Made by a program: the position numbers and the translations under genes. From positions 6,510,001-6,574,000 of the forward strand of contig OX597818.1 of assembly GCA_951406725.2 (NCBI GenBank): a stretch of DNA of 64,000 nucleotides, given 5' to 3'. Below the pieces are notes generated by a model. It made no database searches and had not been told where the DNA came from. It saw only the letters and a list, made by a program, of their open reading frames with translations. The stretch's first letter is position 1, and each line of letters begins with the position of its first letter. Source of the DNA: Octopus vulgaris. Taxonomy: Eukaryota. This document shows positions 4,144 to 50,050 of the stretch, piece after piece.

Positions 4144-4229
4144 ATATATTACATACACACACACTCACACACACATATGCATATATAGATATATATATAT
4201 ATATATACACACATACATATATATTTATA

Positions 4230-4305
4230 GGCGCAGGCGTAAGTGTCTACTATAGCCTCGGGCCGACCAAAGTGGATTTGGCAGACGGAAACTGAAAGAA
4301 GCCCG

Positions 4306-4340
<35 letters not shown>

Positions 4341-4573
4341 TGTGTGTGTGCGTGTGTATGCGTGTTTGTATGTGTCTGTGTTTGTCCCCCACCATCACTT
4401 GAGAACCGATGTTGGTGTGTTTATGTCCCCGTAACTTAGCGGTTTAGCAAAAGAGACCGATAGAATAAGCATCAGGCTTACAACGAATAAGTCCTGGGGT
4501 CAATTTGTTCGACTAAAGTCGGTGCTCCAGTATGGCCGTTGTCAAATGACTGAAACATATAACAGGATAAAAG
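4230..4573 (+). mobile_element. tRNA-derived SINE family A, internally deleted copy
   Basis: Shares ggcgcagg start, tatagcctcgggccgaccaaag, gacggaaactgaaagaagcccgtc, internal (TA)n/(TG)n and gtcaaatgactgaaaca tail with the full copy at 17862-18273. Confidence 0.85.
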
Positions 4574-12848: not shown

Positions 12849-12849
12849 A

Positions 12850-17721: not shown

Positions 17722-17861
17722 CTAATGTAGGATAAAAGTATTTCGAAAAAAAATTTTATCAATGGCCAGCATATTAAAAAATGCCTTTAAAAGTTAAATT
17801 TATAAATAACTTATAAAATAAGGGCAAAAGAAAAATTCTAATGCCAAATATGCCAAATATA

Positions 17862-18273
17862 GGCGCAGGAGTGGCTGTGTGGTAAGTAGCTTGTCTACCA
17901 GCCACATGGTTCTGGGTTCAGTCCCACTGCGTGGCACCTTGGGCAAGTGTCTTCTACTATAGCCTCGGGTCGACCAAAGCCTTGTGAGTGGATTTGGTAG
18001 ACGGAAACTGAAAGAAGCCCGTCGGATATATATATATATATGTATATATATGCGTGTTTGTGTTTGTGTGTCTGTGTTTGTCCCCTAGCATTGCTTGACA
18101 ACCGACGCTGGTGTGTTTATGTCCCCGTTACTTATCGGTTCAGCAAAAGAGACCGATAGAATAAGTACTGGGCTTACAAAAGAATAAGTCCCGGGGTCGA
18201 GTTGCTCGATTAAAGGCGGTGCTCCAGCATGGCCGCAGTCAAATGACTGAAACAAGTAAAAGAGTAAAGAGTA
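17862..18273 (+). mobile_element. Full-length tRNA-derived SINE family A
   Basis: A-box-like GTGGCTGTGTGG, B-box-like GGTTCAGTCC, CCTTGGGCAAG core, internal (TA)n/(TG)n and an (aaagagt)n tail. Confidence 0.92.
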
Positions 18274-19180
18274 TGCCGAAAATAGACAAAATTGTCAATA
18301 ACCATTGTAATTTATGCGTCTCGAAACAAGCCGATTGAAACTTCTAAAACATTCCGTTATTACCGTATTGGTCCCAATTTCAGAGTTAATTCATAAGAAT
18401 TTTCTCCTCCTCACCGATAAATACGTAAGACATAAATGAAATACTTACTCATACCCATGGAAAAAGCAGACACTAAGTCCTGAGCAGACCTATGTAGCCC
18501 AAATATATCCAAAATAGAAAATCTTCAGCATATCTCGAGACATTAACTCTGAAATTGGGACATTCTTTCCACACCTATACCCATAACCACGGACACACGC
18601 ACACACGTACACACGCACACACCCAGATGCATTAAAGTCTTGTGAAAGTTACTTCACTCCTGCCTAACTCCTCTCTTCCTTATTAACTACCATTCACCCT
18701 CACCACCCTACTTTACCACCCCACACTGCCACCCACCATCACCTAACACTTCACACCACACCACTACACACACTAGCACTAACCACTTCCCTGCACCCAC
18801 AATACACATAATCATCCACCCACCCACACCAGCACACGATCTTCAATAACGTCACCATACATACCACTATATAAGCACCCACACGTTACAGACGCTTACA
18901 CACAAACATGAACACACACACTTACACACGCAGACTTGCCAAAGACTTAACAAATCACTGGCCCTATCCACACACGCACACTTGCACATTCATACACACC
19001 ATTCTCACATATACCCACACTCACGCAAGCACACCTTTGGTTGTGAGTCAACGTCACTTTATTACGTCCCTTTCTTCCAACCTCTTCTTTCAAACACATT
19101 TTCTAGTCAGTCGCCAAGCTTGACCGATAAATCTACAGGTTTTTTTTTCATTCTCAATCTGTATTTTTCTCTTATTCTTT

Positions 19181-19212
19181 CTTTTGAAGAGTGTAGCCTC
19201 GAAACGTAAAAT
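19181..19212 (+). ncRNA. Minimal Penelope-type hammerhead-like motif
   Basis: ctt-TTGAAGA-gtgtagcctc-GAAACGTA-aaa, with palindromic ACGT stem III. It ends a CA-rich pseudo-LTR-like tract (about 17720-19300). Confidence 0.45.
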
Positions 19213-19462
19213 ACTTTTTGTCTTTCATTTTTACCGAGTGTCAATCTAATACACCTACTTGTTCATTTTATATAAATATCATCTATATATACGCTCAGTG
19301 GTCACTCCAGTTTTATCCTGCTTTAACATCCTACTTATTGGACCTGCATATCTCAACTACGTCCTGAACCTTCTGCACATCTCTTCATCTACAGACAGAT
19401 TACCACTGGGTATACGGACTCTAATCTCACGGATTTCCCTGGACTTTTTTTTCGTTGATATA

Positions 19463-19501
<39 letters not shown>

Positions 19502-19504
19502 GGA

Positions 19505-19760
19505 GTTGGAGTTGTGGCGTGCTCCTGTAATCTAGCTACTCGGAGGCTTGGTTGGTTGGCCGGTTTGAGGATGGAATCCTGGTAGTCGGTCTTCTATGGC
19601 GATCGGGTGTCCGCTCTAAGCTCGGCATCAATATGGTGCTGGAGAGGGAGCTCATCAGGACCAGGTTGTCTAAGGAGGCCCCGTGTCGAGCAGTAGTGGG
19701 ATCGCGCCTGTGAATAGTTGTCGGTTAGCAGCCCGTTCGATACTACTGAACACCAATCTA
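19505..19760 (+). pseudogene. RN7SL: 7SL (SRP) RNA copy with helix 8 deleted
   Basis: Recognisable metazoan 7SL blocks: GTGGCG..CCTGTAATC.AGCTACTCGGAGGCT, CGATCGGGTGTCCGC.CTAAG.TCGGCATCAATATGGTG, CCAGGTTG.CTAAGGAGG and CAGTAGTGGGATCGCGCCTGTGAATAG. About 40 nt are missing at 19678/19679, and TTTTT follows at 19762-19766. Confidence 0.9.
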
Positions 19761-19769
19761 ATTTTTATT

Positions 19770-20004
19770 GGCGCAGGAGTGGCTATAGGCGCAGGAGTGG
19801 CTATAGGCGCAGGAGTGGCTATAGGCGCAGGAGTGGCTATAGGCGCAGGAGTGGCTATAGGCGCAGGAGTGGCTGTGTGGTAAGTAGCTTGTTTACCAAC
19901 CACATGGTTCCGGGTTCAGTCCCACTGCGTCCCAGGGTCGAGTTGCTCGATTAAAGGCGGTGCTCCAGCATGGCCGCTGTCAAATGACTGAAACAAGTAA
20001 AAGA

Positions 20005-20007
<3 letters not shown>
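19770..20007 (+). mobile_element. Family A SINE with 5 tandem copies of its first 18 bp and a central deletion
   Basis: (ggcgcaggagtggctata)x5 at 19770-19859. The head (19860-19930) is joined directly to the 3' tail. Confidence 0.9.
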
Positions 20008-20040
<33 letters not shown>

Positions 20041-20044
<4 letters not shown>

Positions 20045-21417
20045 TGAGCCTTAAAAGGGATGTGATTTTTTCAAATGTCAACTTTTATACGGTAAATTCA
20101 AAGAACTTATTTCGAGGATGCAAGTGTAAATATTGCAAAATATGCTGGTTTATGACTGAGACCCCAATTGTAGGTAAACTTTCAACTTTCCCAAAAACGG
20201 GACGCAAAAACGCAGTTGCGTCGAATGCCATGGGTAACAGTCGCAAACAATTGTCATGAAAACGAAAATGCACGTGCATCTTGTGGAGGTTACAGGTATA
20301 ATAATCAACTTGAACTGAGTTCCTGGCATTCCTGACTTGGACCCTATTGTCAGCAGCACAGAGAGAACAAGCTATCGAATGAATGCAAGCAGGGCAGCCT
20401 ACCCTGGTTGGTGCGAAAGTTTACAATGTCCATGTCAGCACCGTCTATCCCCTGCAACTGCGATACAACACCAACAGCACTGCAGAGGGCACCCCAGCTA
20501 CTGGACAGCAACCCATCAGCGACGACACGTTACAATGTCGACTGGCTGCCAACAAACTTCGTTGCCGCCGTCCAGCTCGTGAGCCTGTCCTCACCGCCCG
20601 CCACCGTCAGGCACGACTACAAGGGCTACGCAGTACCGACATTAGCGGCATCAACAATAGAAATAGACAGTCTTCTCTGACGAGAGAAGAAACTGCGTTT
20701 CCTCTACGGATGGTAGAGTGAGTGTGTGACCCAGGAGAAGTGAACGGTAGAGAGACGCATGTATCATGGAAAGAGACTCGTGGTGTGGCCAAAGCATCAT
20801 GGTTTAGGGGCTATAGGCCTGAATTAGAGAATTGGGCGCCATGTGTTCCAAAATGTTGGTGCAAGCAAAGGAAATGACATCACAGCGCAGCGCTACGTTG
20901 ACCGTACCCTAAGACCTCACATCGTGCCCTTCTTCGCGCATCACCATAGCCACGTGTTCCAGTGGGACAATGCTCCTTCCCAGATGACCAGGGTCACCTT
21001 GGACTTCCAGCGTCATCATAACATAAGAAGCATGCCGTGGCCGGCTCTCAGCCTGGATTCGAACCCAACTAAACACCTATGGGGCGAAATCCAGAGGCAG
21101 CTAAACAAGGTGGTCCTATGGCCGACTACTCGTGTGGAACTGGAGGCAGCTTTCCTCAGGGTGTGGGCACAGGTACTAATGGCTTTTGTAAACCACCACA
21201 AGCATTCCATGTACCGACGATGTATACGGTATTGAACAGGTCACGCACGACAATCTCGATGTGTTGGATCCGCCTACTACCAGAACACATGACAACCAGT
21301 CGTAGACCATAGTCAAAGTTCTTCCAACAAATTTACTTTATCAAAATCTCTGACATAACGAAAGTAAAATATATTTCACAATCACACATGTTTCGCATTT
21401 CCTTGCGGTTTAGTTTA
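20041..21417 (+). mobile_element. Decayed Tc1-like (DD34E) transposon
   Basis: LRCRRPAREPVLTARHRQARL, FQWDNAP and WPALSLDSNPTKHLW fragments; diverged TIR-like ends in TA context. Confidence 0.85.
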
Positions 21418-36757: not shown

Positions 36758-36804
36758 ATAATGGACTGCGGTTTCGTCCTATAATTGGGACTCGTCAGCA
36801 ATAT
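36758..36804 (-). ncRNA. Canonical type I hammerhead ribozyme
   Basis: atattg-CTGACGA-GTCC caattata GGAC-GAAAC-cgca-GTC-cattat. All core nucleotides are present, with a GUC triplet. Confidence 0.8.
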
Positions 36805-38560: not shown

Positions 38561-38656
38561 TACTGCCTGGAATCGAACTCGGCATCTTGGGGTTAGTAGC
38601 CCGCGCTCTTCACCATTAACCCAAAGATTCCGCGTTCGATTCCAGGCAGTGTCCTG
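38561..38656. mobile_element. Two head-to-head family H tRNA-like heads
   Basis: 38561-38615 is a minus-strand head. 38617-38656 is a 5'-truncated plus-strand head (aagattccgcgttcgattccaggcagtgtcctg) followed by (TAA)n. Confidence 0.8.
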
Positions 38657-48900: not shown

Positions 48901-50050
48901 AACTTAGACTTAGATAAAACTTAGATATGTTTCGACCAGAGATTGGTCCAGGTCATGTCTAACTTAATAGCACCACCTGGTAGGATTATTCGAATCCTGT
49001 TTAAGTCAAGTTTTGTTCAAGTAGTGAGTTCTTGTTGGGTGAGTTGTATCCAGTTTTGTTCAAGTAGTGAGTTCTTGTTGGGTGAGTTGTATCCAAATAT
49101 GGGTGGCTTATCTGGTATTCTTTGAAGGAATTTATCCAGACTCTGTTTGAAGCTGATGGGATCCTTTTCCTCTTTGATCTCCCTCGGGACAATGTTAAAT
49201 AGGGCAGGGCCTGTTGAGGAAAAGAAATTATGTTGCAGGGGACGTATAGCCCGTGGTCCAAGTCTTGGATGAACCTTGAAGTTAATGTTTAGGTCGTTTG
49301 GGCAAAGTTGGCGGTATATTTTCCACATCGTACAAATGATGTACCGCTCACGGCGACGCTGGAGGGAGTAAAGTTTCAAGGCTTTAAGGCGATCCCAATA
49401 ATCGAGAGCAGCCATGCCTTCAATTTGTTTAGTGAGAGCCCTCTGGGGTGACTCAATTCTGGAGATGTTTTGTCTTGTGTGAGGAGACCACAGTGGGCAG
49501 CAGTATTCAAGGTGTGGCCGTACAAAGGAGGAAAAAAGTGGTATGATGACACCTTGAATTTGGCAGGGGACGTATAGCCCGTGGTCCAAGTCTTGGATGA
49601 ACCTTGAAGCTAATGTTTAGGTCGTTTGGGCAAAGTTGGCGGTATATTTTCCACATCGTACAAATGATGTACCGCTCACGGCGACGCTGGAGGGAGTAAA
49701 GTTTCAAGGCTTTAAGGCGATCCCAATAATCGAGAGCAGCCATGCCTTCAATTTGTTTAGTAAGAGCCCTCTGGGGTGACTCAATTCTGGAGATGTTTTG
49801 TCTTGTGTGAGGAGACCACAGTGGGCAGCAGTATTCAAGGTGTGGCCGTACAAAGGAGGAAAAAAGTGGTATGATGACACCTTGTTCTCTGGACCGGAAA
49901 GTTCTTAAGATCCAGGAACTCATCCTACGAGCTATTTCGACCTTCTTGTTGATGTGTGCACTCCAACTGAGATCGGCATCAACAATTACACCCAGGTCTC
50001 TGATATTGTTAGAGGATGTGAGCGGTTCCCCTGAAGGAAGAGAGTATGGT
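48901..50050 (-). mobile_element. CR1-like LINE 3' fragment with internal tandem duplications
   Basis: RDLGVIVDADLSW, FVRPHLEYCCPLWSP and LYSLQRRRER, with a short (tctaagt)-type tail. Duplications at 49235-49556/49563-49884 and 49009-49051/49052-49094. Confidence 0.9.

Follow-up and report, generated by a model that had tools for sequence, protein, structure and literature searches.

A 507 bp insert lying between two TA microsatellites of the Octopus vulgaris genome joins a copy of 7SL (SRP) RNA without helix 8 to a stuttered and internally deleted SINE (Table 1). The structure is likely a one-off chimeric retrocopy that leads no further, and a skip-prone LINE reverse transcriptase probably produced it in one insertion event, a reading to which we assign a probability of about 0.6. 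The window, i.e. the whole stretch of 64,000 nucleotides that was analysed, has a G+C content of 35.5%, contains no N and is rich in microsatellites, with fragments of reverse transcriptase and mariner-type transposase genes elsewhere along its length.

Table 1. Parts of the chimeric insert and of its immediate surroundings (positions within the window)
Feature	Position	Strand	Basis
Left (TA)21 microsatellite, insertion site	19458..19499	.	TRF
GG and extra GGAGTT at the 5' start of the insert	19500..19507	+	sequence
7SL (SRP) RNA copy that retains helices 5-7 and both ends of the Alu domain	19505..19761	+	Rfam RF00017
Junction without helix 8 (39-40 nt, GAAA-type tetraloop)	19678..19679	+	Rfam structure line, contigs
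T5 run (19762-19766) plus ATT linker	19762..19769	+	sequence
18-bp array: five additional units from the SINE 5' end	19770..19859	+	TRF, pattern search
tRNA-like SINE head	19860..19930	+	identity to window copies, fold
SINE 3' tail	19929..20006	+	76/78 to copy at 18188-18265
Right (TA)19 microsatellite	20006..20043	.	TRF

The 7SL part and its missing helix

The 7SL part matches the Rfam Metazoa_SRP model with 163.8 bits (gathering score 70) over model positions 1-299, and both ends of the Alu domain as well as helix 6 with its GGAG loop are aligned, so that the Alu domain is retained. Directly after CTAAGGAGG, a single letter stands in for 40 consensus positions. In the structure line of the model three pairs enclose this gap, and the letters that flank it form the paired foot of helix 8. 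Helix 8 is the binding site of SRP54, which needs it. A functional SRP RNA gene would have this helix, and the window copy is short of 39-40 nt there. A sequence-only reading of the window had already proposed a 7SL copy with Alu domain and GGAG loop from which about 40 nt of helix 8 were missing; the Rfam alignment and contigs of three public runs, which carry the missing piece at 19678/19679, bear out both points.

Since contigs of three runs carry this piece, the intact 7SL gene has helix 8 and the window copy lost it. In run X13 (contigs, guessed to be of RNA origin), 9 contigs break off from the window behind 19678-19679 and 6 return to it before 19676-19679; all 15 loose-end contigs listed at 19676-19679 carry letters of helix 8, including the GAAA tetraloop, and two overlapping loose ends of 30 letters each give 39 letters missing between 19678 and 19679. 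A diverged DNA copy present in runs X1 and X4 has 40 letters at exactly this place. Besides the deletion, the window copy differs from X13 by four fixed differences over 190 covered positions (19572, 19576, 19615 and 19734), two of which fall at the position matching the 7SL B box, as placed from the available text of PMC7245038. The free-energy fold of the 7SL part is no better than that of shuffled sequences (z -0.35).

The insert begins with GG, followed by a doubled GGAGTT; tandem hexamers of this kind occur at 118 of 46,813 window positions. These letters likely represent a 6-nt stutter at the 5' end plus two untemplated G, with the qualification that the listed 7SL contigs begin to align at 19508-19509 and the first 5' letters of the native gene lie outside them.

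The 18-bp array and the SINE part

The T5 run separates the 7SL part from the SINE tail, and nowhere else in the element do four or more T follow one another. Runs of T act as terminators of Pol III transcription. The SINE sequence starts three letters further on, where a 15-mer from the SINE start occurs six times at a spacing of 18 bp (19770-19860), corresponding to five extra units followed by the real head; TRF finds a period of 18 with 6.1 copies at 98%. The order of T run, five repeats and centrally deleted SINE with tail, the whole placed inside a TA repeat, is as the sequence-only reading had it. The head is identical to the full copy (at 17862) at 68 of 71 positions and to the copy at 12849 at 54 of 55, and the identities of the tail to these two window copies are 76/78 and 73/78. 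Head and tail join at a shared GT, with about 257 bp of the SINE body absent relative to the full copy at 17858-18272. A closing stem is predicted for the head (19861-19866 with 19925-19930), and the head stops exactly at the end of this stem. We take the head to be of tRNA origin, as judged by eye; ARAGORN and Rfam call no tRNA within it. Within the window the tail matches only SINE copies, and no partner LINE was found there. The 410-bp SINE of the window presumably resembles an octopus SINE: tRNA-derived octopus SINEs, OK, OR1 and OR2, were reportedly described by Ohshima and Okada in 1994. In O. vulgaris, SINEs make up 11.6% of the genome according to the available part of PMC13282606.

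Errors of the same types are found at other SINE loci. The copy at 4226-4571 (+) has a tRNA-like head without its interior and further small deletions; one aligner opens gaps of 60, 12, 3 and 9 bp, the 60-bp gap taking out the inside of the tRNA-like stem, and MAFFT places one 75-bp gap with mismatches in the head plus a 9-bp gap. Stuttered SINE heads are also seen at other loci in the public runs, with 8 records each in X1 and X4 fitting two places, joints in X1 that go back by 35-36 letters, and diverged repeat units between the two sides of the joint in both runs. One X13 contig of depth 33 likewise carries a stuttered SINE head (on 19770-19806).

Further repeats of the window were recorded alongside. 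A 5'-truncated SINE copy lies within (TAA)n at 12849-12215 (-) and contains a nested 230-bp element (12688-12457) that is also present at 33071-32840. Another tRNA-like head, with a (TAA)n run directly after it, occurs at 13042-12980 (-) and at 38562-38624 (+); the two are 86% alike and possibly belong to another SINE family. A LINE-like fragment bears a near-perfect tandem duplication of 328 bp (49235-49884), and a type I hammerhead ribozyme is found at 36758-36804 (-), with 45.5 bits against an Rfam gathering score of 34.

Depth and copy number in public runs

Four public runs were aligned to positions 19488-19806: X1 and X4, both contigs from DNA, the above-mentioned X13, and the raw run X22. 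Neither the helix-8 junction nor the 7SL-SINE junction is spanned by any of the 24 pieces listed, with 685 further pieces and 99 loose ends outside this list. From the 1934 million letters of X22 only 2 partial reads matched, far fewer than many 7SL genes should yield, which we take as loss by filtering.

The window's own letter at 19615 accounts for 60.1 of a depth of 4935.9 in X1, 145.7 of 3237.8 in X4 and 52.5 of 276,533 in X13, and that at 19576 for 148.6 of 4199.9, 144.4 of 2287.3 and 0 of 24,899, respectively. The median depth of long diverged 7SL records is 65.3 in X1 (7 records) and 46.5 in X4 (8 records). The window copy's own letters thus correspond roughly to 1-3 copies in the DNA runs, an upper bound, summed contig depth being no copy number and X1 having been read to about 80%. 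This bound holds for the point differences and not for the deletion, and within a family a single member might be the only one to carry these letters. The same letters contribute between 0 and 0.02% of the depth in X13, whose contigs drop rare variants and are guessed to derive from RNA. At 19734 the depth left over (58.4 in X1, 47.3 in X4) was at first read as coming from the window locus and then rejected as evidence for it: neighbouring rows point to an older copy, and at 19725 the window's letter is missing from every X1 contig that covers this position.

At the border between the TA repeat and the 7SL part (19488-19498) the depth is 0 in X1 and 43.2, a one-copy-like value, in X4. Among the runs, X1 held the largest share of the 129 words sampled from 19100-20400, namely 0.69. 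The flanks constitute 0.55 of this interval, and runs of other organisms contain 0.17-0.19 of the words, as shared repeat words; runs with a share under 0.2 serve only as a rough background level. The share of X1 requires no junction words, because flanks and shared repeat words already explain it. With no depth at the TA-7SL border, X1 may lack the insert, which may be polymorphic.

With contig depths far above single-copy level in X1, X4 and X13 (19508-19760), 7SL looks like a multi-copy sequence in its own right, and depths near 2000 in X1 suggest, as a rough inference, tens of near-identical intact 7SL genes. Many diverged, dispersed 7SL copies are found in X1 and X4, several of them apparently common to both runs. 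X13 shows two variants at 19592 (75,115 of 175,118), and most of the X4 depth differs from X13 at 19719, 19725 and 19727. Each of X1 and X4 has one contig (depth about 52) that connects 19639 with 19682, the letters between being not known; it is possibly a second 7SL copy from which more of the S domain is deleted. In exact-pattern scans, the 7SL motif had no match in metagenome contigs and the SINE head none in metagenome, genome and viral contigs.

Origin of the insert

Junctions and parent sequences can be read directly, and from them we infer the order of steps and their belonging to a single event. Running from 3' to 5', synthesis would have been primed on the SINE tail at the (TA)n site; about 257 nt of the SINE body would then have been skipped as far as the end of the tRNA-like stem, by way of the GT microhomology, and the SINE 5' end copied again five times. 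An end-to-end jump would have led from the SINE RNA onto the U-rich 3' end of a 7SL RNA, where the base of helix 8 may have been crossed by another skip, and a final 6-nt stutter followed by two untemplated G would have completed the copy. Both internal deletions, that of the 7SL part and that of the SINE, end at helix feet, which supports skipping by the reverse transcriptase, and the stutters at other SINE loci in X1 and X4 together with the skips of the copy at 4226 support an enzyme prone to such errors. Template jumping and untemplated addition are activities of non-LTR reverse transcriptases (PMC8857657, in its available part). The 5' junctions of R2 are often imprecise, although the duplications found there are of target sequence, so that the parallel is a loose one (PMC3774820, likewise in part). 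Moreover, both halves look similarly young, given 4 differences over 190 positions between the 7SL part and X13 and the SINE identities of 68/71, 54/55 and 76/78. Since Pol III transcription from the 7SL part would stop at T5, before the SINE tail, the chimera would not spread as a unit. Of the two origins put forward in the sequence-only reading, the single retrotransposition with template switching fits best; the other, membership of an unreported 7SL-derived SINE family in molluscs, is disfavoured by the T5 stop and by the depth of 1-3 copies.

A single insertion event is not proven, because no target-site duplication is readable: both flanks are TA repeat, and the longest word they share is TA repeat only. 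It is conceivable, if unlikely, that the insert arose in two or more events, a 7SL retrocopy landing in the TA repeat and a SINE later inserting at its T/A-rich end, with the deletions and the 18-bp array due in part to later DNA slippage. TATA or ATA usually stands ahead of a SINE head, and TTTTTATT is available at the 7SL end; many dispersed 7SL copies have no listed SINE partner (among the diverged records listed, 7 in X1 and 8 in X4), and the 18-bp units are perfect, as expected of recent slippage expansion. However, the longest shared word is of only 3 letters around the SINE alone and also around the 7SL part alone, indicating a duplication in neither case, unlike the full SINE copy at 17858, where ATGCC...ATA, found on either side, is a likely one. 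The two halves are not separated by a TA run, and they resemble each other in their low divergence and in the type of 5' stutter. The joints could instead have been made in assembly around the two TA repeats, for which the absence of any independent read over the joints among the listed pieces, the X1 depth of 0 at the left border and the best word share of 0.69 may be cited. Such an artefact is nonetheless very improbable, as N is absent from the window, point differences of its own set the copy apart from the intact genes, X4 has depth over the left border, and the joints coincide with RNA helix feet and RNA ends, features that a DNA assembler cannot know.

A young or low-copy 7SL-derived SINE family sharing the helix-8 deletion, with the point differences private to the window copy, would accord with the one-copy-like X4 depth over the TA-7SL border, with the second copy in X1 and X4 that has a different S-domain joint (19639 to 19682), and with the precedent of hagfish SINE1-1_EBu, which originated when 7SL sequence fused with an older tRNA SINE (PMC7245038, available text). 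We hold it to be improbable. With T5 ahead of the tail, the sequence predicts no single Pol III transcript reaching from the head to the LINE-recognised tail; known 7SL SINEs have lost 155-183 nt, the window copy 39-40 nt; the letters of helix 8 are present in each of the 15 X13 loose-end contigs listed at 19676-19679; two of the four point differences sit at the B-box position; and the depth of the copy's own letters, at 1-3 copies, compares with the at least 100 interspersed copies that SINEBase requires of a SINE, SINEs being kept apart there from RNA pseudogenes (PMC3531059, in the part available). A new Alu-like family is accordingly unlikely. It is tempting to speculate, at similarly long odds, on a nascent lineage of 7SL-derived SINEs in an invertebrate, the first outside vertebrates, in which a hairpin-skipping reverse transcriptase keeps making S-domain-deleted 7SL copies fused to the tail of the dominant tRNA SINE; such a lineage would possibly include the 19639-to-19682 copy, which two organisms share, and would replay early steps of Alu and of hagfish SINE1. 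Hardly credible is a working variant gene that gives SRP RNA without helix 8. The Alu domain, helix 6 and the T5 end are indeed kept, but the copy is located in a TA repeat, the flank of a gene is absent, and in X13, guessed to be RNA, its own letters amount to 0 of 24,899, at most 52.5 of 276,533, and 0 of 75,143. SRP54, moreover, needs helix 8. The GGAG loop is bound by SRP19, which acts as a clamp on helices 6 and 8 (PMC8185352, available part).

Relation to known elements

In a chimeric retrogene, a cellular RNA of nearly full length is directly joined, in the same orientation, to the 3' end of a retroelement that lies downstream of it (PMC2104539, in its accessible part). The octopus insert conforms in its 3' part, SINE head and tail both being on the plus strand and joined directly, 3 letters after T5; in its 5' part both ends of the model are matched, yet helix 8 is gone and the first letters are maybe a stutter. 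Human 7SL/LINE-1 chimeras have been reported, with template switching or RNA ligation as the routes (10.1101/2025.02.02.635956, available text). As far as the available texts go, the insert resembles these, the U6/L1 type and a tripartite Magnaporthe chimera in its anatomy and in several jumps per insert. It differs from chimeric retrogenes in that the 3' partner is a SINE with an intact and repeated 5' end instead of a 5'-truncated LINE, in that both halves are internally deleted, and in that the target-site duplication is not readable. 7SL retropseudogenes such as P7SL_MD of marsupials are likewise a cellular RNA copied to a dispersed site; P7SL_MD is full length with poly(A) (PMC7245038, available text), while the octopus copy is without helix 8 and ends in a SINE.

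Among amplified elements the closest likeness is to hagfish SINE1-1_EBu, in which a 7SL-derived 5' part is combined with tRNA-SINE sequence that supplies a LINE-recognised tail (Kojima 2020, PMC7245038, available text). Full-length copies of this element number 2363, its central deletion is FRAM-sized and its duplications measure about 17 bp; the octopus insert, in contrast, loses 39-40 nt, keeps the whole tRNA-like head, has T5 in between and shows no second copy. Known 7SL SINEs have a central S-domain deletion of 155-183 nt and are recorded only from supraprimates, hagfish and shrew moles in the available part of PMC13023118. Set against these the 'Alu-like' label of the sequence-only reading overreaches, since only 39-40 nt are lost and helices 5-7 are kept: relative to Alu/FLAM/FRAM, B1, Urop and 7SL-tRNA dimers (B1-dID), the deletion is four times smaller, there is no A-rich linker or poly(A) tail, and amplification is not seen. 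In the literature searched, which included few subscription papers and to which repeat databases or supplements could add an entry, no report of a 7SL-derived SINE from a mollusc was found. The term '7SL' occurs 0 times in the main text and one supplement of the O. vulgaris repeat annotation (PMC13282606) and in the available text of PMC8967140, and in that of PMC4758252 only in the introduction and references; the SINE motifs were found in none of the paper texts searched.

Significance

Most likely, then, the insert is a real, well-formed and single chimeric 7SL-SINE retrocopy, of a kind of chimera already known. As a one-off it is a tidy fossil of reverse transcriptase errors, with body skip, 5' stutter, end-to-end jump and hairpin skip preserved together in 507 bp. 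Only a multi-copy helix-8 junction would make it considerably more important, because 7SL SINEs are listed, in the part of PMC13023118 available, only from the three groups named above. The many dispersed 7SL copies of the public runs could show whether deletions of the S domain arise in reverse transcription.
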